From Vermamoeba vermiformis (Eukaryota), in NCBI GenBank assembly GCA_045837725.1, contig JBEWZL010000198.1:62001-126000 (forward strand): DNA of 64,000 nt, given 5' to 3'. A program made the position numbers and the translations under genes. Numbering within the stretch: the stretch's first letter is position 1; every line of letters begins with the position of its first letter. Positions 4,316 to 55,700 of the stretch are shown one piece after another. The notes under the pieces are model-generated. The model ran no database searches and was not told the origin of the DNA. It worked only from the letters and a program-made list of their open reading frames with translations.

Positions 4316-5908
4316 ATGTCCAATTTTAAACCAGCCACAGTTGTATTCTCGTTGCCTGGCTCGTCGTCAAGCAATAAATTTGACAAACCACTAGGTAACC
4401 GTTTGGCACAAGAAATTAGCCAAATCAAATCTGATAATAAATTCTAATAAAAGATATTAGTTAATAACGCTAAATAATTAATAAAATAACTTCAGGAATA
4501 ATTTATTATTTTTTGCTAATTTTTTTTATTTTCCCAGATGAGCTGATAAAACAGGACGGCAATAGACCTGCTGATATTAAAGTAAAAAAACAGGTAAAAT
4601 ATATTTGCAGTTTAAGAAGTTTTAGCTCCATTTCTACACGAAGATCCACGTTATGAAAAATACCGAATTTTTATTTATCTCGCCTATTGTCACCTCCATC
4701 AAATCTGATTATATTCGCTGCCACTAGAACAAACGATTGGACCTTAAAGGAGTAGTCCAAAAGAACGTCAAAGAGAACACAAAGAGCAAACCAGCGCGAG
4801 CACTCAATGCGACGAAGAGCGAGAACAATCCACGACTGAACAAACGCGCGGAGGACAAAAAAGGACGACCAAGACCCGTGTTGTATGTATTAGAGACATA
4901 GTGGTAGACTTATATGAGTACGTGTTATTAATATAACGTTGTAGTATCGTGCCTCCTCAGAAAGACGAGCCACACAACAAAGGCGGAGTGAAATTTAACA
5001 GACCGAACAACAACAACAATCACACTGACGAGAAGGTCAAAATTGTCGTCAAGAACGATCAGTTTGGCAAACAAAAAGAAACTAAAAAGAAGTACGTCAA
5101 CCTCGACACTTTCGAGTAATTTTTTCACGGTGTCAAACCAAGATATTTTTCACGGGTACTAATGACACTGGCAACAGGGACACTGAACCTAAAGAGCGCA
5201 TTCGAATCAGAGTGAATCGAACGGACGATGAGATGGTGGACAGCGATGGAGACCGCGACAATGGCTCACCACTGCGAGCACGACACAGCGACAAAAAACG
5301 ACGTCGATCACGTGACCGCAGCGAGAGTGACAGCGACGAGGAGCACAGACATCGTCGACGACCGTATTCAGTGAACCAAGTGCAGCCCTCGCCGATGTAC
5401 ATGCAGCCGCAGTACAGTGTGCCCATGGCCCCCGCACCTGTCGCACCAATGCCGCGCATGTACGGCGCACCTGCTCCTGGTCCTCAGGGCGTGTTTCAGA
5501 ACATTTTGCACTCTATTCTCAAACAAAATATTGATGAGCGACTTAACGTAAGCCAAACCACAAGCAATTGCTTTATTTTGAAATTTCAGACCGGATCTGT
5601 TTTTATTTGATCCGAATTACTCCGCAGAATGAGAGTGAATTTCTATCCATAATGAATCATATTATTAATCGCCTTCTTGCCAGCAAACTGGTCTGCCTCC
5701 CCCACCACAGCCGACAATGCCAGTGCGCACTTACGGCTACAATTACCCAGCCGCCGCTCAGCCTGTCATGGAAGAGCCCATGCAGCCTTTGTTCGCGGAC
5801 AATGACCGGTCTGGTGGCTTGACATTGAGTCAGAGGTTCGGCTCTTCATCGTCTAGCAAGTCTTCTTCGTCTTCGGGCACCTCAAAGATTACGGTCCGTT
5901 TACACTAA
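4316..5908 (+). CDS. Basic/low-complexity protein with UAP56-binding-motif-like N-terminus (possible mRNA export adaptor)
   Basis: Exon 1 (4316-4394) spliced to the exon near 4538 gives FDKPLDELIK. Later exons encode Lys-rich, RS/RD-rich and Pro/Met/Tyr-rich tracts and a C-terminal GLTLSQRFG motif. Confidence 0.5.
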
Positions 5909-20000: not shown

Positions 20001-21496
20001 GATTGTAAGTTCATATCATAACGACTACACTAAGCATATCTGACACCTGTTATTTAGTTCTTGTTCGCAGCTGAAGAAAACTATTTGAGTTATGCCTACG
20101 ACCGGTACTTGGTCATCAGTGAATTGGACAACTCGTACACGTACCCCAAGACCCCTAACGGCCGTCCAGACATCATTAAGAGCTTATACGTCGATCCTTA
20201 TGGTACGTCCCTAGTCAATTTATTATCGATAATATTGTTTCTAATGGCCACCCAGATCACTCTCAATCGAACAACACATTCATTCCGCCCGTCATTGGCA
20301 CAGACCCTGTGCCGAGAGTAGGTGTCAAAGTTGTTGTGATTGTTGCACGAGATTAACTGTTTCATTAGGCCACGCAATGGATTCTTGACGTTAGCAACAA
20401 CGAGACTTACACTGAAGTGATTGACATGCTCATCTCTGAGTCCAATGTAAGTGTAGCATTTAAGTGGCAAAGCTCTTATTAACATCATCTTATCAGCGTT
20501 TGCCATTGAGTGTTGACACCAAGACCCCTATGATTCTCACATTGGAGTACTACACCGTCAAGACTATTCGTCGCTGGGAATCTACTAAGCTGTACCTCTT
20601 GACTAAACCTCGTGCCCTCGTCACTAAGATGCCTGGCTTCTTCTTCAGCTCGTACTCACAGACCTCGAAGAACTCGCCAGTGCTCATCTCTATGGACAAC
20701 TATTACAAGTTGATGTTCAGAGCCTTCAACAGCTCTTACATGCGCAATGAAGACTTCCCTGACAAGCCACCCAAGCGCACCTTGTTGGTCAAAGTACGTA
20801 GCAGCATATTCTTTGCGAGATAGCGCTTTAACCTTTGACTATTATAGTTGAAAGATGACGTGAGCACTGAGGACCGCGAGTACATTGTGAACGGCATCAG
20901 AAACTTCTTGCAGTCCGATCAAATCATCGTGTCTGACACGAGCGAACTCGTCAAATCAACTGACATTGCCGTGCTCGTGCTGAACTTGTTCTTCGATTTG
21001 AGTACGTACACGTGTTAGTCCTCACACCTATTCTCCATTACTAACACCTTGTTCAGTCGCTGTGATTGTCATCACGATCTGTTTCTTCGTCTTGTTGGTC
21101 TCGTTCACTTCAAACATCACGGAAAATGCGTGGGAGTTTGGTGTCTTGCGTGCTGTTGGTTTGACTGTACGTACTTTAGTTCTTGTATACTTAGCAGTGC
21201 CCTAATATTGCTTGCACTATTCTTAGTCCTTCCAAGTCATTCGCGTCTACATCTACGAAGCCATGTCCATCATTTTGTCCTCGCTGATACTGGGTACTGG
21301 TCTCGGCATGATGGTGTCAGCTACTTTGACTCTGCAAGCCGATTTGTTCACTGAACTCGCTTTTGAAATGCGATTCCCGCACTTGTTGTTCTGGTCTATT
21401 GTCGTCATGTCGCTCGCTGTAGCTGTCTTGGGCTCGTGGTTGCCAGCCAGAAAATTAGCTAAGAAGAAGATCGCAGCTGCTTTGAAGAACAAATAA
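17044..21496 (+). CDS. FtsX/MacB-type (ABC3) permease domain protein with two FtsX repeats
   Basis: Two permease signature repeats (SDVESKVYECGMLRALGM and ITENAWEFGVLRAVGL), many TM segments, large extracytoplasmic loops and no nucleotide-binding domain seen. About 14 introns. Confidence 0.85.
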
Positions 21497-21667
21497 GACC
21501 TAGACGTTACTTATGAGTTAATTTTTTTAGCAACGATCTGTGTCTGCAAATTAGTACTGTAATAAATAGTTATCGCCCGTTATCAAACGATAGGACTTCG
21601 TGGATCCGACTGCGGCCTGCACACACAGCAAGAAAAAAAAAGGAAGGGGGGGGGGGGGGAGAGGAGG

Positions 21668-21958
21668 ATGAAGGACTATGACTCAGTCAAGCAGACCGTC
21701 CAAGTGATGAACTTCGTGAAGGGAAACGAGTTTGGAGATCCAGCCAAGTTCGCTGTGGCCATTGAAAAGATTCTGGCACTGGAAAAGCCACCTGTTTGCA
21801 TTCCTATTGGCAACGACTCCATTTCTATCGTTCGTGCACGTGTTGCTAAGCATCTCGAAGAGATCGATGCCTACAAACACGTTGGATCTGGCACTGACTT
21901 CGATACGCTAGATGAAGGACAACTCGCAGTACTCAAAATGTTTTCTCAACAACAGTAA
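21668..21958 (+). pseudogene. C-terminal fragment of short-chain dehydrogenase/reductase
   Basis: GDPAKFAVAI...PPVCIPIGNDS...TDFD resembles the tail of classical SDRs. No Rossmann GxxxGxG or YxxxK upstream. Preceded by poly-A/poly-G runs only about 170 nt after the previous gene's stop. Confidence 0.6.
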
Positions 21959-22036
21959 AATAAAATAAATTAAACGGTTGCTGCACTCCACGGCGCTTTC
22001 CGTTGTCCATGGTGCTTTGGCGTAGCACGTCGCCGT

Positions 22037-22390
22037 TTACAATCGATGTTTACACGGACAGTTGTTCGCGTGCAAGTACTGCAAGATGTGCTCTTGATGG
22101 TTGGTCGTGACTACTAGGCACACATCAACGCTCCACGGTGCGCCGTGATCGTGCACGTATTTCAAAGCCCCGAGAAAGCCACATTGAGCAGCTTTGTAAC
22201 ACGTCAGTTATAATGCGCGATAGACCACTCGGCACCCTGTTGGTGCAGGTACTGCAAGCGCGGCACATTGCTGTGTTGTGCGGCGCAGGCGTCAGAACCC
22301 TGGTTGCTCGTCTCTTCCACTTTTGGCATGCCAATTTTTCGTACAGAAATCATTCACACAAAGTCCAGATGTATATTCCACAAAACATTT
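22037..22390 (-). pseudogene. Decayed ankyrin-like repeats (3' part of F-box/ankyrin gene)
   Basis: Minus-strand frames give FLYEKLACQKW, LQYLHQQGAEWS, LKYVHDHGAPWSVDVC and LQYLHANNCPC, broken by stops and frameshifts. Confidence 0.7.
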
Positions 22391-22424
22391 AATTTTAATA
22401 TTATATTATATTAGCAGGCATTTT

Positions 22425-24451
22425 ATGTTGCGACAAAGTGCCCGTTTTTTTACCGCGCGATCCGAAAGTTTGCAGCTTGCTTCAGCACAAGGTAAACCAA
22501 CGCCAACCCCTGTTATATTTAGGGACACTTTTTAGGAAATATAATCTATTGCTAAATTGACTGAATCTAGTGCTACAGTATTTTTAAAATTATTATTATT
22601 ATTAATTTTGTTGCAGCGGCAGCCATTCATCTGTTTTCAGCCGCAACACAAAGAACTGGGAGTGCTTCGAGAAGAAAAATCAAATTATTACCCTTCGGCG
22701 GTTAGTGTGTTGAGAGGACGAGCAAATTTTTAATCAACTCTTCAGGTGGTTGCAAAGATCACTCCAACACCAACTTATTTCCTCTACAGTGCAATCGATA
22801 TTTCTCCCACTACCAACCAAACAAAAGATTTACAATCAACGGTGCAATAACGTCATTAACGCACCCTGGTTATTATTTTGTTGATCCGGCTGAAGCGAAC
22901 AGCAGAGACCTTCTCCCTGGCATTTACAGTGGCTCTTACATTATGCTTCACGGTTCTCGAGGTTCTGGAAAGTCGACACGAATGTACAGAGCTTTAGAAC
23001 AATTACAAGAGGATTTTCTTTGCTTGACAATCACTTTCCAAGCAAGTGTGGATTTTAGAAGCCTTGATTCATTTTGGACCTCATTTGGACGTCAGTTGTG
23101 CTCTGACAATAAGCATGTCAACTTACCGAACATCACCTCAGCAGCAGATTTTGCCGATTTACTTTCTAAAGCGAACAAGGAGAAGTTGTTTAAAGGGAAA
23201 AACGTTGTGCTCTTTGTTGATGAATATGATTTACTTTACCAAGCACAACAAGAAGTCTTAGATTCTTTTCTCAACACACTTCGAGGCATAAAGCAACAAA
23301 AAGCAGCATACTGTTTGCAGTCTTTTATCGGAATTGGACCATTTAGTATCCTTGCTTTGTCTGCAAAATCAAGCATTCCATTCAACGTGCAAACTGCAGT
23401 TCAAGTACTGTATTGGACAAGAGAAGAAGTGCATCAATTATTTTCACAGCATTCAACTACAATTGATAGCAGGATAGTGGATGACATTTATGAACGAACT
23501 GCAGGCTACCCTGGACTTGTCTGTCTTTGTGGCAAAATTATCGATGAAAAGCAGCATGTATTAGCAGAACGTTACGATTCATGGCTACAATATGTGACAA
23601 AGAGTTTGGAAAAAGCTATTATTGAATGGCCAACTATGCAAAAGATGGTGGAAACACTTTCAAGCTCATTAGAGCCTATAAAATCAGCAAGAATCCTCCT
23701 TCGACAACGTTTTATACCGAACACAATCTCACCAATTGTTCTGAATACACAAGAAGAACTCAATTGTGGCAAATTTTTAGCAGCTGAAGGAGCTTTAGTA
23801 CCGGTAGATTTATCAACTTTTCGTATTCCATCACCTTTCATGCATTGCTTGTTATTGGAAAGAGTTCTTACAGTAGACAAAAGAGCAAAAATACCCTCGG
23901 AGGCTGTTCCATTTATCACTTCTATGCATGGCACTACAATAGACGTCCAAAAACTTATCACACTGACAATTGCTTGCATTGAGCCCTCAATCATCCAATC
24001 AGCCTTTCATAGGGCACACAAGAAATCAAGGCTTCCTGGCATGAAGAGTGATTCATTTGTACCACAAGAAGCTGTTTATCATGCAGAGCTATTTGCTATA
24101 CTTCGAGACTGGCTACCATCTGATGTAACCCTACTGACACAAGTCACCTTGCCATCGTTAGATTCAAATAGTAGATGCAACTTGTTTATGGAAGTGTCCC
24201 CATCAAGCAGGATTGTCATTGAATTAGTTGCCAATGCACCAATTTCTATTATAGAGGAGCACTATGATCATGCACTGGAATATGGCAAACACTTGGATGC
24301 AACAGAAGTTTGGGTCTTGCATTTTACTTTAAAAGAGGAAGGAGATGATTTCCACTATCCAGTGCCAAAGGATAAATCGTTGAACGTAATGCATATCTGG
24401 CACAAAGCAGACTTTTCATCGTATAATGTGGTTTGTATGACTAGAGAGTAG
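22425..24451 (+). CDS. P-loop NTPase + restriction-endonuclease-fold protein (Crinkler-associated NTPase/REase architecture) with putative mitochondrial presequence
   Basis: Exons 22425-22491, about 22617-22700 and about 22747-24451 splice in frame. Walker A HGSRGSGKST, Walker B VLFVDEYD, TAGYPGLVCLCG. C-terminal EAVYHAEL...WL...IVIELVA...H...Y...EVWVLHFT pattern. Confidence 0.8.
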
Positions 24452-24479
24452 TGGCTTGTTTGAAGCAAATAAAAACCCA

Positions 24480-25074
24480 GGTTCGAAGGAATCTAGCAGT
24501 TTCTCATAACTAGCAGCGTTGCGTGCCATTTCTACGTCTCTCCAATTGTCACAGATCGCTGACAAAAAGTATTTCGTGGACGACTGAAAATTTGAAGCAA
24601 GTGTCCTCCGAGCGCTGCCTTAGTGACCACTGCTTTGAATTACACACGCAGTAGTGTGTTTGTACGTGCTGAAGACACCTGAGTGAGCTGCACAGCTATG
24701 CAGCATTTTCGATCGAGGCAGATTCGCGTGACATGACAATTTTAGCACTTGTGAGTCTCAATAAGGACGATAAATATTCCATTCTTAGCTGCGACGGTGC
24801 TGTAAAGAATCTTCTGGTTGTGCGTTCGTGAATCTGGTTGGAAGATGTCTTTGCCTTTAAATTTAATATCAGATAAATGCAATTAAGGTTAAAATAATTT
24901 TAAAAATTACCTTTTGATATATGCAAGTGTTCTCTTGCCTTAAGTGCTTGGAAACTAGTTTGACAACGAAATCTGGATGCGCTTGATGAATTGCGGGGCC
25001 ATTTTTCTCAATCGTTCGTCATCTTTAATGTTTTTAAATATTTCTGTTAATATGTCGATAGGGAGAGATTCCAT
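24480..25074 (-). pseudogene. Decayed F-box + ankyrin-like gene (5' part)
   Basis: ATG 25074: MESLPIDILTEIFKNI (F-box start), with FVVKLVSKHLRQ in a shifted frame. After an intron come LRCLQHVQTHYC, VVTKAALGGHL and WRDVEMARNAASYEKL fragments with stops and frameshifts. Confidence 0.65.
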
Positions 25075-25508
25075 AAAGTGCACTAATCTACCGTTTGTTG
25101 TAGTCCGTTGTCAACAAAATAAGATAAGTATTGGGAAGGCAAACAAGCGAGATACACCCCCTAATTCTTTCCAATAAATTATAATAATTTGAGGCAGGAT
25201 TTAGTAAGTCAATTTGCGCGTATACCATGGTTGAGTTAACATTCGGAAATAGACTACGAGTTAGCTGAGATGCGTTACATCTCCTGTCAAAAAAGTCCAT
25301 TAACTTGTCCAAGCAGACTCAAGACTGAGATCTCTTTTATTACATACTACCTACTGATAATTAACACAACTGAAAGCGACAGGAAACTTTCCGCGGCAAT
25401 TTCGATCTAAATACTTTCAGAGAAGATCAGATGCACCACAACACATTGTAAATTAATGTAATTGAACTTATTTATTATTTATTAGCCACAGTCGTAGTTT
25501 TATAATCG

Positions 25509-28500
25509 ATGGAATCAGAAGAATCGAAGATCTGGTTCAAACATCGACATGCCTCAATGATATTGCAAAGAGATCTATTGGATCGAGAGTTGATTACATA
25601 TTATGAAGGAGAAAATTTAATACAGCATAATAGAAATCAGGTATACATAGCAAATTAAATCAAAATTACGTAATCAAATAAAATAAATTTATTAACGATT
25701 TAAATTGCAAAATTATCGCATCGGTCATAGAAATAATTATGGTGGCTATTTATGATAATTATAGCTTGGCGGAATTTTCCTATTCATTTGCTTGATCTGA
25801 CATTTTTATCAATATTTAGTTCTCGGCCTATCTTTTGGATCCAAGTGGCAACTCACAATCAATTTTGATTTCAATAACGAACTTTAGAATAATCGTAAAA
25901 TCGTTTGAAAATGCGGACGCAGTCTGGGTAAGATCTAAATTTGAAAAATCAAGATCCAACTCTAACGACCTTGTATTTCAATAGGTCCCTATAATGACCG
26001 TCGACTCTATCAAAAGAGACGGCAACGTCTGCGTATTAAATTGCAAGGACGTCAGGACATTGAAATTTGTTTTCGATTCGAATGATGACTCGAGTTTATG
26101 GTTTTATAATTATTTAAAGCCGCTCTTGGAGGTGCAAAATTTGGAAGATTTATTTGCCTTCCATTATAGGCCATTTAAAATCGAAACGAATGGCTGGGAG
26201 GTTTGGAACCCCGTGGAGGTAAGTCCATCTGTCTGGATGTCGTTACACGCCATTACAAAAAATTATATAATGGCTTAATATCCTTACATTAATAATGTTG
26301 ATTATGTTCATTAATAATACGAGGTAATTGGATAACACTAATTTTTATAATTTTGTTTTAGTATTGGCGAACGCTGATCGCGCCAGTGTCGGATTACTGG
26401 TGCATAACAGATGCTAATATACAATACGGCATATGTCCTACGTACTCGAAATATCTTGTCGTGCCTAGACAATGCAACACGAAGAAAATTCTGCGCGAGA
26501 GTGCGCTCTTCAGAACAAAACGGAGGTCTGTAATTAAATTTACTATAAATGGTAATAGGTGGTTTTAATCGTACTCGGCTATACTTAGGTTTCCGGTATT
26601 AAACTGGCGTCATCCAACAAAAATCAGCATTACCTTGTCGCGCTGTTCGCAGCCCAAGACAGGCATTGCAGGCAAACAAAGCAAGTCAGACGAGGCCCTC
26701 ATTCAAGCGATCAGACTCAGCAACAAATTGTCGAATTATTTGTACATCGTTGATTGCAGACCTAAAGCTAACGCGCTCGGTACGTGACTCGATGCGAGAG
26801 TGACACTTTGAATGACACTTTTGACACGTGCTGACACCTCATGGTACTATCTAGGCAACACGATTGCAAAGGGTGGCTACGAGTCTTCAAATGTCTATTA
26901 CAACTGTCGCGTCGAGTTCATGAACATTGGCAACATTCACACAATGCGAGACTCGTGGCAACGATTGATGTCTATTGCCAAGTCATCCTATGAAGGTGGT
27001 GACGATTATAGGTGGTGCAGTGACCTCGAAAACACTGGCTGGTTGAAGGTAAGAATGACACGTGTCACTCATCTCCACCTTCTGGAAACCGACTCACGCC
27101 CACTTCTTTAAAGCACATCAAATTGATTCTTAAAGCCACGCTAGAAATGGTTAAATATATGGAAATTAATAACAGCTCCGTCGTGGTGCATTGGTACGTA
27201 CTTAAATATTTGACACGCGTCACTTTTGACACTTCGAGTTTGACACGTGTCATTTTGTTAGCTCCGACGGATGGGACCGTACCTCACAACTGTGCAGTCT
27301 AGTGCAACTATTGATCGATCCGTTCTTCAGAACAATTAGAGGCTTTGAAATACTCATTGAAAAGGAGTGGTGTTCGTTTGGTTACAAATTTGGATCTCGA
27401 ACAGGTACGCTTGAAACCTTCTGTTTATCGCACGATATTAATAATTTGTATAGGACATGCTAAGAACCAGCCTAGCGATGAAAGATCACCTGTCTTTGTG
27501 CAATTTTTAGACTGTGTTTGGCAGGTCATTCAACAGTTCCCAACAGCTTTTGAATTCAACGAAGAACTGTTGATTTTCATCGCAGATTCGTTATATAATT
27601 GTCAATATGGAACCTTCTTGGGAGATTGCGAGCTAGCACGAATGGATTATAGAAATGTAAGTGTGACTTCTATGAATCGTTTGGAGCACATCCGATCGGA
27701 TCTGCCGTTACACGAGCCATCTCGATCAATCTAACCACTATCATTCCTTTAATATAGAAGACTCAGTCATTGTGGTCATTTGTAAATACAAGAGATAATA
27801 CTGCGAGATTCTCTAACCCTCTTTACGCTCCACGAAGTGACGTGTTATGGATCTCAACTTCATCTAAAGTAATTCGGTTCTGGGAGGTACTCATACATAT
27901 AATATTACTACGAATATATTTACTTAATTTTCTTAGAATTATTGGCTGCGGTGGGATCAAGATTATCGAGTGGTTACTAAAGCGAATGAATATCATAAGA
28001 ACCACGTACAAGACTTGAAGAAAAGAATTAAAGAGTTAGAAAAGCAGCTAAATAATCAAATGATGAATCAATTCAAGAACTTAACGACCATTGCTGAAGC
28101 AGAAGCGACCACATCCACATCCACAAAACGAAACTCGTTGGGACCGAAGAATCCGTTAGCTGCCTCAGCGACTATCATCAACGACGATGCGTTAGTGCAT
28201 GCTCAAGACGATGACAACAATATTACTGGCGCAGATGATGGGCCAGGCTCGAGTAACAACCGAGCAGATCTGCAAGAAAGTGACGACAGCATCAGCAGCT
28301 CTAGCAACAATAATAGTCCTAAGAGCACCTCGCAGCGGAACAGTTTAGAGGAGTTTGTAAATATGCGCAGCTACAATAACGATGGCCCGAACAACAAGAT
28401 GAATGATAGCGGCGGGATCCAGATGCAAGACATGAGTCCGAAGCCTGAAGAAATAACAGAAGTACCTCCATTAGAAAATAGTAACAATAGTGTCGCCCCC

Positions 28501-52708: not shown

Positions 52709-55700
52709 TTACATAAAATCATCAGACGAGGGCATATATATCGCATAACTCGACTCCAAGTCACTCAGATCCACCGACTTGCCGTTACTTTTTTGACTCT
52801 TATCTTCATCGCTGCTTTGACTAATTAAAAGTTTCAAATTTTGATTTTCTTGCGATGAAGATCTTGAGGCCTTATTCTTCTTCTTATTATCTTTCTTATT
52901 ATTAATCGCGTTCTTAGAATTATTTTTCTTTTTCTTATTCTTGTCGGCACCAATCACAATGGTCTTATTACTATCACTACTACTACCACTGCTATTGTTA
53001 TTATGATGTTGTTTAGTCTCTTTCGTCTTTTTCGTTGATTTTTGAAGTTGTTTTTTGACGCTTCTTGGCGCCACGTCAAAATCATCCAAACTGTCGTCAA
53101 ACAACAACAGCTCATTTTCTTCCGCCGACTTTTTATTCTTCTTGTCTTTGTTCTTGTCTGTATTATCGCCCGAGCTCAATTCAATCACATCTTTCGGCTT
53201 AGTTTTGGTGCTGCCATTGCTCTTACTATGGCTGTCATGATTGTTCTTGATTGTCAGTGACACGAAGGTGTACGCATTGGCCGCTTGTTTCTGCGTCTCA
53301 GATTCCTTGTGATTGTTGCTGTGATAGCTTAACGTGGCCGGCACGTCGTCTTGTTGCGTGCTCAGCGGAATTTCAACGTCTTTCGTTACCTCCGTCGGAG
53401 TTTTTTTCTTCGTACTGAGCATCAATGAGTTTTTCCGCTTCAAGCTGAGCAAGTTCTCCTTCAGTACTTCCGCATCATCGTCATAACTATCTTGCAGTAG
53501 TTTGTTATTAGTGCCCTGCTGCGACTCTAACTCCGATTCTTCAATGCTCATGTGCTCGTGTTCGGGCAGTGATTGTTGCGAGTCCACGTAAGTCAGCTCG
53601 ACTCGTCTATTGTTCACATTGCGACTAACATTTGACGGGTGACTAATACTGTCACTAATATGGCTCATATTGCCAAAGCTAGTTGAGGACCGTTGATTCA
53701 TTGTGCTCGGTTGACTCGGGATCAGCTGCACTTTCTGCGACAAAAGGTGTTCTTCAATGCCAGTATTCAACACCAGAGACAAATGAGGACCTATATAATA
53801 TTAATATTAGTATTTTAGTATTATAGTAGATTGTTAGACGTACTTGGTGTGGGTGCATCCGGTTGAAGTGGTTGCGAGTCTTTAGCTAATATGACATCAG
53901 CGAGTGAGTCGGGGACTCGTGACATTTCGCTGTAAATTTCATGCCTCTTATGCACATCACTATTATTAGTGTTTGTATTGTTATTGTTGGACAACGAGTG
54001 GATGTTGGTGGTTGGATGTGGTTCGTCTTTGATTTTCACTTGCTCGACGTTTGTATTATATACAGGTTCTATATTATGCAAGTTGATGTCATCGTATGAA
54101 TAAGCGTACATAACACTATCAGAAATATCGTAGTCATCGAGAACACTGTCGGTGTAGATCTCCATGATCTGTTCGGATCGTTTTCGTTTCTTGCCAATAT
54201 TAGTATTATCATTTGATATAGAGGTCCTAGTATTGCTCTTCTTCAATATTGATTTTTGAGGTGTTCGTTCCTTCTTTACAAGCAGTGGTCTGTGAGATGT
54301 AGATCCGGATGGAGTCGATCGGACTTCTGCGGCAAAAGAAACATGCATTTGATTGACACTAGGATCATTTTTAATATGGATGTTCTTGTGCGTGGGTCGT
54401 TCAGTCGTTGGGAGAGGGTGATTGCGGTCTTCTGAAAAATCTTCAATGTCATCCAGCCGCAAAACAGATGGAAGAAAGGTAATCTAATATTAAGGATTAT
54501 TAATCTATAATATAAATGGTATTTATAAAGAATACTTGAATAAAAGAGAATAATCAACAAGATCTGGAGCCGAGAAATTATTAGAATTAAATTTAGAAAT
54601 ATTGAAAATAATAATTAATCAATAGTAGGGTCAAATATTATATACGTACTGTTTTGGTAACGGCTGCTCTATTTTTTAATAAGAATTTAATTTTTTGACC
54701 TGTGCCAGAGCAGATTTGACTTAATTCTTTCCAATCCGTAACAGTTTTCAACTTCTTTCGTGGTCTGCTTCTAAAATTACAACTTTCATCGTAAGGATCT
54801 CGAAAGAATGAATTTTCTTGCTTCCACTGTTGCATTCTGTGCTGGATGTTCTGCAAAAGAAATTCTGAGAAAAATTTTGATACAGACAAGGCCGAGCCAA
54901 TAAAATAAATAGCTAATTAAATTCCGCCGTTTATTTACAATTAAATTATTTTAGGGCCTATTTGACGATCAGATCTACACAGCCAAGATCCGTTTCATTT
55001 CGTTAAATGTCCCTTCTAAGCGTGGGTACAAATCAAACGACAAGAAATTCGTCTTATTTAGCTGCACCAACTCTTCTAAATCGTCTTTGGTGTAAGAAGA
55101 GCACAGAGCCACGAGTAACTACAAATCAAACGAATTAGATCCGGATCAGGGTTATAAATCCTTCGCGTCTTTACCTTCAACTCTTCACTACTTTTCAGCG
55201 CACTTTTGACTTGGTCCATATTTATCATTCGTTTCAAGCGTACTCGGTCATCTAGCGACAAAAACGGATCAGATCAAGTTTATCAAAAGTTACTAGGACT
55301 TCAACGGCTTACCTAAGTCTATTGCGGCATATAGAGCATCTAATATATAAATTTCATTCTTTACGACGTTATAGCCATCGAGTAAATAGTCAATGGAGAG
55401 CCAATTCACCTCTAAACCATTGATCACTTTAACCAGCCTTCGGAGTGAGTCTACGTATCTAACGTCCCTATAATACATATGTGAGCATATATAGATGGGC
55501 ATGATATAAATATTCGATAAAAGTAGGAATGAAAAATATTGATTATCTGATCCGTACCAATTCTTTCTCTTAGCGATCTCTATTGCTATGGCATATAGCA
55601 CTACGCCTAATGTATTCGATATTATTTCGCACGAGTAGCCTGCGAATTCGTTCATAAACGTGTAAACATGTAAACTGAAGCCTTCATCATTTGGCTGAAA

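Follow-up and report, generated by a model that had tools for sequence, protein, structure and literature searches.

A header-less NTPase-REase gene of a Crinkler-related family lies between decayed ankyrin-like repeats in Vermamoeba vermiformis

The stretch of Vermamoeba vermiformis DNA that was analysed (64 kb, "the window") contains a header-less member of an NTPase-helical/winged-helix-REase protein family, which is known as the Crinkler C-terminus in some of its relatives. It does not appear to be a transposon that is still active. Its reading frame is the longest ORF of the window, which otherwise contains intron-rich housekeeping genes, and it is situated within an accessory island of about 4 kb that has a permease gene on one side and a myotubularin gene on the other. 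Besides the NTPase-REase gene, the island comprises the 3′ fragment of a dehydrogenase gene and, on both sides of the gene, remains of ankyrin repeats that run along the opposite strand, with a weak signal on the right (Table 1). The explanation that is favored here combines a resident gene at a single locus, a functional reading of the encoded protein and an old insertion into an F-box/ankyrin gene, and the combination as a whole is given an even chance of being correct.

Results

The NTPase-REase gene and its conservation

In the original prediction an intact NTPase-REase gene had been described on the plus strand. The gene, the folds and the open frame were all recovered, but the word "intact" has to be qualified on account of the 5′ exons and of an Asn and a Tyr residue at two conserved positions. 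The frame is open from stop to stop between positions 22706 and 24451 (581 codons), and it encodes a P-loop ATPase of the ORC/STAND type that is connected through a helical part to a restriction-endonuclease fold at the C-terminus. Because the first in-frame ATG (22943) is located directly before the P-loop, the 40 conserved residues further upstream require small 5′ exons. From the sequence, a three-exon model with GT..AG introns is proposed that would start with the ATG at 22425, and its spliced frame would be open over 618 codons. The hexamer AATAAA functions as a polyadenylation signal, and one copy of it follows the stop codon.

Only two of the 72 highly conserved columns of the family alignment deviate in the window copy. 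At the conserved nuclease position, an Asp is present in ten of the 11 aligned C-terminal domains, and an Asn as in the window copy was also found in the relatives P0001 and P0004. As judged from codon comparison, the whole protein appears to be still under purifying selection; the dN/dS value versus the relative L001 was 0.27 over about 448 codons. Two raw RNA runs with the same species label did not contain any read with a likeness of at least 90% over positions 21724-25524. This says little about the expression of the gene, because the strain used for the RNA runs is 5-10% diverged (99 of 105 and 96 of 103 placed reads were only 90-95% alike).

Table 1. Positions of the NTPase-REase gene, its motifs and the flanking remnants in the window
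Feature	Position	Strand	Remark
Short-chain-dehydrogenase-like gene, 3′ fragment	21668-21955	+	last ~75 residues only
Decayed ankyrin repeats, LKYxHxxGCPW type, 3-4 units	21930-22305	-	frameshift near 22207; stop 22037-22039, similarity continues past it
AT-rich spacer, GC 0.31	22306-22424	.	between ankyrin remnant and putative NTPase gene start; holds the left border of any insert
Predicted 5′ part of NTPase gene	22425-22745	+	exon 1 22425-22491 (ATG), intron 22492-22616, exon 2 22617-22700, intron 22701-22745
Main exon of NTPase-wH-REase gene	22746-24451	+	ATPase ~22880-23575; helical/winged-helix ~23576-23900; REase 23903-24448
Walker A GSRGSGKST	22952-22978	+	family alignment
Walker B VLFVDEYD	23207-23230	+	D172, E173, D175 conserved in family alignment
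Tyr instead of His	23507-23509	+	motif T-x-G-H-x-G-L-V-C; His in 14/14 other family members
Asn (AAC) instead of conserved nuclease Asp	24179-24181	+	strand beta-2 of C-terminal model
Stop TAG of NTPase-REase gene	24449-24451	+	
Right border of any insert	~24452-24480		
AATAAA, likely polyadenylation signal	24468-24473	+	17 nt past stop
Strongly decayed ankyrin-type units, shifting frames	24480-24798	-	e.g. SSLRCLQHVQTHYCVC, AALGGHLLQIF
Putative 56-nt GT..AG intron of decayed minus-strand gene	24855-24910	-	sequence only
F-box-like first ORF MESLPIDILTEIF... ending in stop	24955-25074	-	Pfam F-box E 0.065

Fold and domain assignment

The gene product matched the Pfam family AAA_22 with 28.7 bits (cut-off 27). 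The predicted structure of the full protein had a pLDDT of 80 and a pTM of 0.77, and its best Foldseek matches, at E values of about 1e-7, were Sso1545, ORC/Cdc6, CED-4/Apaf-1 and plant NLRs. The C-terminal 182 residues were predicted to adopt an alpha-beta-beta-beta-alpha-beta fold (pLDDT 84), and the best VIA-align matches of this model were BamHI (Z 8.2, rmsd 3.8, 128 residues aligned), OkrAI (8.2) and BglII (8.0), Z values near 8 being middling by the tool's own scale. Among the 50 VIA-align entries listed, the majority were nucleases with the REase fold. A Foldseek search with the same model yielded no rows at E<=0.001, and the weak rows also pointed to nucleases, while ESM features gave a value of 0.95 to the PDDEXK_3 and DUF8371 clusters. 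At the sequence level, no nuclease family of Pfam matched the C-terminal domain of the window copy, one weak PDDEXK_3 row (E 0.033, locus L009) was obtained with the respective domains of the relatives, and a PDB sequence-profile search with the family retrieved P-loop matches only and left the C-terminus without a match.

Relatives and the Crinkler header

A word-indexed search in a collection of 5.8 billion proteins, in which 8000 candidates were scored, revealed 14 proteins at E<=1e-3. The closest relatives shared 71-93% identity with the window gene, and the named homologs belong to the Glomeromycota (Paraglomus, Gigaspora, Cetraspora and Ambispora). Pfam matches to AAA_35, AAA_16 and ATPase_2 were found across the family. 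Pattern-limited scans of prokaryote genome contigs and viral contigs did not retrieve any relatives.

The connection to Crinklers came from metagenome loci. In two of them the Pfam Crinkler header is encoded directly upstream of a homologous module (L015, 4.4e-16; L024, 1.3e-16), and across the set of 30 metagenome loci the module was combined with a Crinkler header or a SAM domain, or else Pfam recognized no head domain upstream of it. In the window, the header (LFLAK/DWL, Pfam PF20147) was found in none of seven plus-strand ORF pieces upstream of the gene, and it was absent from the 502-aa portion of the frame that starts with an ATG. Also among the relatives P0002-P0013, no Crinkler header was detected by Pfam at E<=0.1.

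The island and the decayed minus-strand repeats

The minus-strand ankyrin repeats that had been noticed left of the gene proved to be real, and the similarity could be extended to about 22305 and past the stop codon to about 21930. A 56-aa piece of this remnant (22040-22207, minus strand) had 6679 relatives at E<=1e-3 in a phmmer search, and its 18 top relatives that were tested all contained Pfam ankyrin repeats, two of them together with an F-box. The internal repeat of the left flank had an E value of 0.03. The GC content was 0.505 over 21930-22305 and reached 0.54 in the core at 22040-22305. A contig of sequencing run X1 lacks 11 nt at 22164, within this remnant. The dehydrogenase fragment could be aligned with the putative dehydrogenase 3m1a (281 aa) over residues 207-280 of the latter (E 4.5e-7), and the permease gene ends at 21496, which leaves no room for the remainder of the dehydrogenase gene. 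In run X1, position 21601 is joined to 21710, and loose ends were observed at 21609-21668 in X1 as well as in X5, a water metagenome with a related strain.

To the right of the gene the signals were much fainter. An F-box start had been proposed at 25074; an F-box-like ORF does begin there, but its Pfam score of 13.6 bits remained below the cut-off of 20.5. A second frame (…VVKLVSKHLRQ…) runs on to the putative splice donor, which suggests a frameshift in the F-box-like ORF. The contigs of both X1 and X5 lack 6 nt at 24856. A crude F-box motif count, which was positive for seven of 150 ankyrin relatives, missed both Pfam-positive proteins and was not relied on.

Was one F-box/ankyrin gene split?

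The original prediction had proposed that an insertion of the NTPase-REase gene killed an F-box/ankyrin gene. The geometry fits this proposal: read along the minus strand, the order is an F-box-like start, ankyrin remnants, the plus-strand gene unit, better-kept ankyrin units and a stop codon, and the plus-strand unit between the remnants is compact (about 2.1 kb), with an AT-rich 5′ region of its own and an AATAAA at 24468. The split of a single gene is plausible, but it is not provable, since ankyrin repeats always look colinear and a colinearity comparison with paralogs has little power. A word-index search retrieved no close paralog for either the ankyrin or the F-box piece.

A rather unlikely, though the strongest, alternative is that no gene was split, and that the ankyrin patches on the two sides derive from separate paralogs or result from unrelated decay in an island of dying genes. 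The unequal decay is in accord with this: the left flank matched the repeat profile with 79.1 bits (the query itself) and 19.8 bits, while no match in the right flank exceeded 5.6 bits, and such a difference is not what the simultaneous inactivation of one gene predicts. In addition, the dehydrogenase fragment is a third decayed gene in the island, both haplotypes carry structural variants across it (indels of 11, 6 and 13 nt and a skip of 108 nt), the ankyrin similarity runs past the left stop codon, and an F-box is rare among the tested relatives (2/18). On the other hand, this alternative requires two independent truncations that both stopped precisely where the NTPase unit begins or ends, the pieces have the strand and the order of one gene, and an F-box with about seven repeat units corresponds to the typical size of the relatives (250-500 aa).

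Clearly less probable is a chance origin of the F-box/ankyrin signal in the right flank, which would leave a pseudogene fragment in the left flank only. It is true that no Pfam Ank family matched any of the ten minus-strand fragments tested from both flanks, that the F-box E value was 0.065, that one of 1489 tblastn HSPs fell into the right flank, that the similarity between the two flanks comprised 15 aa at an E value of 2.7, and that no relatives of the F-box piece were retrieved by word index. Nevertheless, the ankyrin-like fragments that had been reported for the right flank stood out from the window background in their summed profile score. Four colinear matches of 5.6, 3.4, 2.6 and 1.0 bits were found at 24798-24598, on the correct (minus) strand, in repeat order and with about repeat-length spacing, and their sum of 12.6, a statistic that was picked post hoc, was higher than that of all 2478 background windows (maximum 9.8). 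Furthermore, ten of 20 residues were identical to P0159 in the LxCLQYxHxxGCPW core, and the GC content rises locally to 0.49, as it does in the left remnant.

Absence of signs of mobility

The view that this locus provides evidence for mobility was not supported. A repeat search of 22000-24900 (seed 7) did not reveal any terminal repeats or target duplication pairing 22306-22424 with 24452-24480, in agreement with the original prediction, which had seen neither terminal inverted repeats nor a target-site duplication. By eye, no convincing hairpin or CTRR end as in Helitrons was recognized. In the contigs of run X1 no more than two variants were present, and each of them went together with its own flank variant. 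The variant with 93% identity looks allelic, because it goes along with a matching flank variant (25307-25550) and the depth ratios of the two agree (0.69 and 0.66). A 948-nt contig of X5 bridges positions 24330-25253, and thus the right junction is the same in the related strain. An empty site, which had been suggested as a signature of insertion, was not seen in relatives with a divergence of up to about 9%, in that none of the X1 and X5 contigs runs across the site without the gene. For relatives within that range, the gene comes close to being single-copy and syntenic, a state that, according to the original prediction, would refute its proposal.

That the gene acts, or acted until recently, as an autonomous mobile element that inserted itself with its own nuclease and ATPase and thereby killed the F-box/ankyrin gene is very improbable: its gene-sized unit between ankyrin remnants, its atypically low GC3 (0.33, the lowest among 15 in-frame coding segments measured), its long intron-poor exon among intron-rich neighbors, the mobile-type genes beside some relatives (a DNA_pol_B_2 ORF in L014, a D5_N ORF in L010) and the connection that Zhang et al. 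(2016) drew between transposable elements and prokaryotic NTPase+REase pairs (according to the available part of PMC5289972) are opposed by the missing terminal repeats and target duplication, the lack of a second copy in the 64-kb window, the small number of relatives (14 proteins among 8000 candidates scored), the allele-like behavior of the variant, the conserved junction and the contigs mentioned above, the Asn at the conserved nuclease position, the absence of a transposase or integrase domain from the 57 ORF pieces scanned in the flanks within the island, the lack of ankyrin remnants in the neighborhood of the 30 metagenome relatives (best E 0.41), and paralogs in other organisms that are similar over the coding part only or are tandem duplicates.

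Discussion

Comparison with known systems

Crinkler C-termini that consist of an NTPase, an HTH and a REase domain have been described by Zhang et al. (2016), according to the available part of PMC5289972. The window gene has the three-part build of these CRN/CR effector C-termini, in which a P-loop NTPase is followed by a helical/winged-helix part and the fold of a PD-(D/E)XK nuclease; it differs from the effectors in that no header was found and that the nuclease Asp is replaced by Asn. CRN-like proteins without the LFLAK domain have been reported for Rhizophagus irregularis, with the domains DC, DN17, REase5/6/8 and NTPase4 (PMC6131194, available part). They resemble the window gene in being header-less and in their CRN C-terminal domains, the likeness being one of domain names, and they occur in early-diverging fungi, as do the named homologs of the window gene. 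Another header-degenerate Crinkler-type gene is AACRNL, which has a degenerated N-terminus, is spread through teleost genomes by the hAT and mariner elements that flank it and has been discussed as a selfish passenger of genomes in eukaryotes that are free-living (PMC12957317, available part). In contrast to the window gene, AACRNL has an ADP-ribosyltransferase as its toxin domain, multiple copies and recognizable terminal inverted repeats, while the window gene is of the NTPase-REase type, was seen at one locus and had no such repeats or nearby transposase found. None of the papers listed in the literature searches described a Crinkler-type gene with NTPase and REase domains as a eukaryotic transposon, Zhang et al. 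(2016) being possibly relevant.

With regard to structure, the N-terminal 350-400 residues share their fold with ORC/Cdc6, with STAND proteins (Apaf-1/CED-4/NLR, Avs4) and with the archaeal AAA+ protein Sso1545 (2fna), but the identity is only 11-16%, and the window protein has a REase domain where the sensor repeat domain of those proteins is located. The C-terminal domain has the alpha-beta-beta-beta-alpha-beta core in common with BamHI/OkrAI/BglII/BstYI, McrC, Can2, NucC and CdiA-CT (Z 7.4-8.2 over 121-135 residues), and an E...D...E-x-hydrophobic pattern is conserved. In contrast to such nucleases, the third motif is devoid of Lys and the Asp is an Asn in the window copy, and the identity is 7-11%.

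A resident gene with a possible insertion history

The explanation of a resident, header-less gene of a single locus would work as follows. Based on the structural models, a switch like that of ORC/Cdc6 and STAND proteins may respond to ATP and control a nuclease domain of the PD-(D/E)XK type that is similar to BamHI/BglII. Because neither a header nor a secretion signal was found, the protein probably acts inside the cell, as far as its predicted N-terminus indicates, and the fold would be compatible with an intracellular role as a conflict or immune-type protein. As the key Asp is an Asn in this lineage, cutting has probably been weakened or lost, while the Asn may still allow activity. Within this explanation, the chances are about equal that a gene-bearing segment of about 2.1 kb did or did not land inside the F-box/ankyrin gene. 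Such an insertion would predate the divergence of about 7% between the two haplotypes or strains that were seen, and it could have occurred by a route that leaves no recognizable ends, e.g., break-repair capture, ectopic recombination, or a carrier element that has eroded since.

It is tempting to speculate much further, that Crinkler-type NTPase-REase modules without a header are mobile agents of eukaryotes, with the REase as cutter and the ORC/STAND-like ATPase as target chooser, and that the locus is a fossil insertion by which an F-box/ankyrin gene was split, the element having later been disarmed by the Asp-to-Asn exchange and kept by the host. A division of labor between a cutter and a target chooser is known from Tn7 TnsA/TnsC or MuB, which form a loose parallel. 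The idea has to be regarded as the least probable of all readings considered here.

If the split-gene history were true and an empty site were found, the region would represent locus-level evidence for the spread of a Crinkler-type toxin module in eukaryotic genomes. Up to now, the arguments on the spread of Crinkler-type modules have come from comparisons of domains (Zhang et al., 2016, according to the available part of PMC5289972), and spread on flanking transposons has been shown for a different Crinkler-like gene (PMC12957317, available part). The locus adds a header-less family member with a probably attenuated nuclease, and its models lend structural support to the view that the module may combine an ATPase of the ORC/STAND type with a BamHI-like nuclease. 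In addition, the analysis contributes 30 metagenome loci in which one module is found with different head domains or with none detected by Pfam.

The NTPase-REase gene and its state

The plus-strand NTPase-REase gene is a new member of a known module family. The gene lacks the Crinkler header (the N-terminal ubiquitin-like LFLAK/DWL domain, Pfam PF20147), probably has an attenuated nuclease, and lies at one locus common to the available haplotypes and strains. The original prediction of an NTPase joined to an endonuclease fold was confirmed. Pfam AAA_22 was matched above cut-off (AAA_35 and AAA_16 below it), and a Walker A motif was present. A full AlphaFold model from 15 input sequences reached a pLDDT of 80.4 and a pTM of 0.77, and its first ~400 residues matched Sso1545, ORC/Cdc6, CED-4/Apaf-1 and plant NLRs in Foldseek (E about 1e-7). 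The last 182 residues, modelled separately from 11 sequences (pLDDT 84.1), form an alpha-beta-beta-beta-alpha-beta core. Among 48,161 chains, VIA-align placed BamHI at the top (Z 8.2, rmsd 3.8, 128 aligned), together with OkrAI (8.2), BglII (8.0) and BstYI (7.4), and PD-(D/E)XK nucleases made up most of the best 50 entries. By the tool's own note a Z near 8 is middling, and therefore the weight rests on the uniformity of this list. Weak Foldseek rows (SfsA, McrC, NucC, Bax1) and language-model features (0.95 to the PDDEXK_3 'GxxExxY' and DUF8371 clusters) concurred; the conserved pattern of the domain is VP-x-E-x-x-Y…D…E-L-(V/L)-A.

The frame, open from 22706, closes at a TAG (24449-24451). 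Its earliest ATG (22943) is directly 5' of Walker A, but the 40 preceding residues (…KRFTINGAI…YFVDP…) are kept in relatives, and therefore the true start is further upstream. If translation began at the ATG at 22425 and GT..AG introns of 125 and 45 nt were spliced out, 618 codons would be open. Two RNA runs of the same species label, from a strain 5-10% diverged from the window, contained no reads over the gene. The gene had been called intact. Its frame is open over 581 codons, and dN/dS is 0.27 (dS 0.76) against L001, the closest relative with DNA (77% nucleotide identity), but the start, the nuclease Asp and one conserved His qualify that call. At the nuclease Asp the window copy has Asn (AAC, 24179-24181), in common with the protein relatives P0001 and P0004. 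Of 11 C-termini aligned, 10 keep the Asp, and L001 (79% identical) is one of them. Only 2 of 72 highly conserved columns deviate, Ser to Ile and His to Tyr (23507-23509; His in all 14 other family members). Thus the gene is conserved, but its cutting is probably attenuated. L001 itself has at least one in-frame stop (566-661) between same-frame ORFs 2-565 and 662-1369, and may be a pseudogene or intron-bearing.

Selected features of the locus (window positions)
Feature	Position	Strand	Remark
Walker A GSRGSGKST	22952-22978	+	
Left ankyrin remnant, 56-aa piece	22040-22207	-	6679 proteins at E<=1e-3
Dehydrogenase-like 3' gene fragment, 96-aa ORF	21566-21958	+	match to 3m1a, E 4.5e-7

Relatives and Crinkler membership

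A word-indexed search of a 5.8-billion-protein collection (8000 candidates scored) yielded only 14 proteins at E<=1e-3, the closest with 93, 76, 71, 44 and 39% identity; later matches include the Glomeromycota Paraglomus, Gigaspora, Cetraspora and Ambispora (31-39%). A metagenome scan added 30 loci. In two of them, L015 (4.4e-16) and L024 (1.3e-16), a Pfam Crinkler header is directly upstream on the same strand, and therefore the window module belongs to a family used by Crinklers. Although this is so, the window gene itself lacks the header, which was absent from seven ORF pieces upstream of it. Header-less CRN-like proteins have already been published for Rhizophagus (PMC6131194), and resemble the window gene in this respect. 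Most loci had nothing recognisable upstream. A SAM domain (Pfam SAM_1, 1e-4) replaces the header in L012 (1-240) and at the N-termini of P0010 and P0014, so the head domain is swappable.

Several loci showed features of their own. L019:2658-2952 and L024:1-296, from one soil sample, overlap at 99%, and the joined contigs hold two head-to-tail copies ~91% alike, the second with the Crinkler header; L021 is a third copy (92-94% alike). This is a tandem family expansion in a different organism. L014 has a 544-codon ORF (3-1634; Pfam DNA_pol_B_2, 9.3e-9) 1.8 kb upstream of its NTPase homolog. It is 99% identical to L013, from another sample, from L013:123 (L014:2556) onward and unlike it before (L013:1-123, L014:2434-2556), a breakpoint that reflects either the edge of an element or an artefact of assembly. 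In L010 (GC 0.57) the NTPase homolog is broken over three frames, and the 6 kb on its upstream side include a D5_N primase-helicase-like ORF (5.1e-5) as well as one for a 2OG-Fe(II) oxygenase (stretches 1-1650 and 4727-5473). The distant matches L029 and L030 (24% identity) have three consecutive overlapping ORFs, all AAA/STAND-type NTPases (nSTAND2, ATPase_2, AAA_35), in a layout that looks prokaryotic.

The island and its ankyrin and F-box remnants

The window is eukaryotic DNA. RNA reads confirmed a 60-nt GT..AG intron at 21167-21226. Housekeeping domains are spread over short exons among the ORFs of >=95 codons: WD40/Gemin5, lipid desaturase, Ku, PRMT, FtsX permease, myotubularin, biotin carboxylase, RCC1, PTP-like phytase, VIT1, aminotransferase and TrpD-type glycosyl transferase. 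A scan of 75 ORFs showed no transposase, F-box or ankyrin domain. The second-longest open frame (52712-53800, minus strand, 363 codons) matched no Pfam family at E<=1e-4. The NTPase-REase gene shares a small island with decaying accessory genes. One is dehydrogenase-like, and as only the last ~75 residues of the 281-aa putative dehydrogenase 3m1a were matched, it is a 3' gene fragment. A variant diverging from the window at 21609-21621 occurs in the sequencing runs X1 and X5, and X1 also has a record departing before 21668 and a contig without 108 nt (joint 21601-21710); therefore the island is structurally polymorphic.

The predicted minus-strand ankyrin repeats to the left were clearly recovered. 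The matching proteins were hit over many stretches each, all 18 top matches tested were Pfam ankyrin proteins (two also with an N-terminal F-box), and with the 150 best matches as queries 1457 of 1489 tblastn HSPs fell at 21900-22300. The similarity runs across a frameshift near 22207 and a stop at 22037, and an X1 contig lacks 11 nt at 22164, as expected for neutral decay. For the right flank the prediction was only partly borne out: there was a single tblastn HSP (E 0.38), and none of 10 minus-strand fragments from both flanks matched Pfam Ank. A profile of 954 repeat domains gave four matches (1.0-5.6 bits) in repeat order on the minus strand (24798-24598), whose summed score of 12.6, a statistic chosen post hoc, exceeded all 2478 background windows (maximum 9.8). 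The right remnants are probably real, but much more decayed than the left ones. The proposed F-box start at 25074 is F-box-like, but scored 13.6 bits against a Pfam cut-off of 20.5.

It had been proposed that the NTPase unit split one F-box/ankyrin gene. The unit is compact, with a spacer of GC 0.31 (22306-22424) on its 5' side, an AATAAA at 24468, and ankyrin remnants restarting within about 30 nt; strand, order and size of the remnants fit one split gene. However, any two ankyrin patches would look colinear, no close paralog of either piece was found in the databases searched, and the unequal decay argues against simultaneous death of one gene. An old insertion is plausible, and the chances of the split-gene history are about even.

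Mobility

Self-mobility of the gene, also proposed, was unsupported. With a GC3 of 0.33 it ranks lowest among the 15 in-frame coding segments measured, its long exon stands amid intron-rich neighbours, and pPolB (L014) and D5_N (L010) ORFs are close to two relatives. PMC5289972 describes a link between transposons and the NTPase+REase pairs of prokaryotes, and according to PMC12957317 another Crinkler-like gene is carried along by hAT and mariner elements. These points are weak. Against them, terminal inverted repeats and target-site duplications were absent at the borders, as originally noted, and the 64-kb window contains no further copy. A 93%-type gene variant in X1 (23414-23648, 17 differences, depth 62.6 versus 91) is mirrored by a flank variant (25307-25550, 14 differences, 58.1 versus 88.3). 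The two depth ratios agree, which makes the pair a second haplotype or strain arranged in the same way. The suggested empty site in related strains did not appear: the only joints in X1, X5 and RNA reads mapped around the locus were the intron and the 108-nt skip, and a 948-nt X5 contig (water metagenome, 91-97% alike) spans the right junction (24330-25253). Pattern-limited scans of prokaryote and viral collections found no relatives, and none of the 30 metagenome loci has ankyrin remnants beside it. In other organisms the relatives are either diverged paralogs, whose similarity is confined to the coding part, or tandem duplicates, as in the adjoining L019 and L024. In the RNA runs X9 and X11, the window exons at 21000-21723 and 25525-26250 were matched at 90-95% only (99 of 105 and 96 of 103 reads), with many fixed differences, and the species label seems to span clearly diverged lineages.
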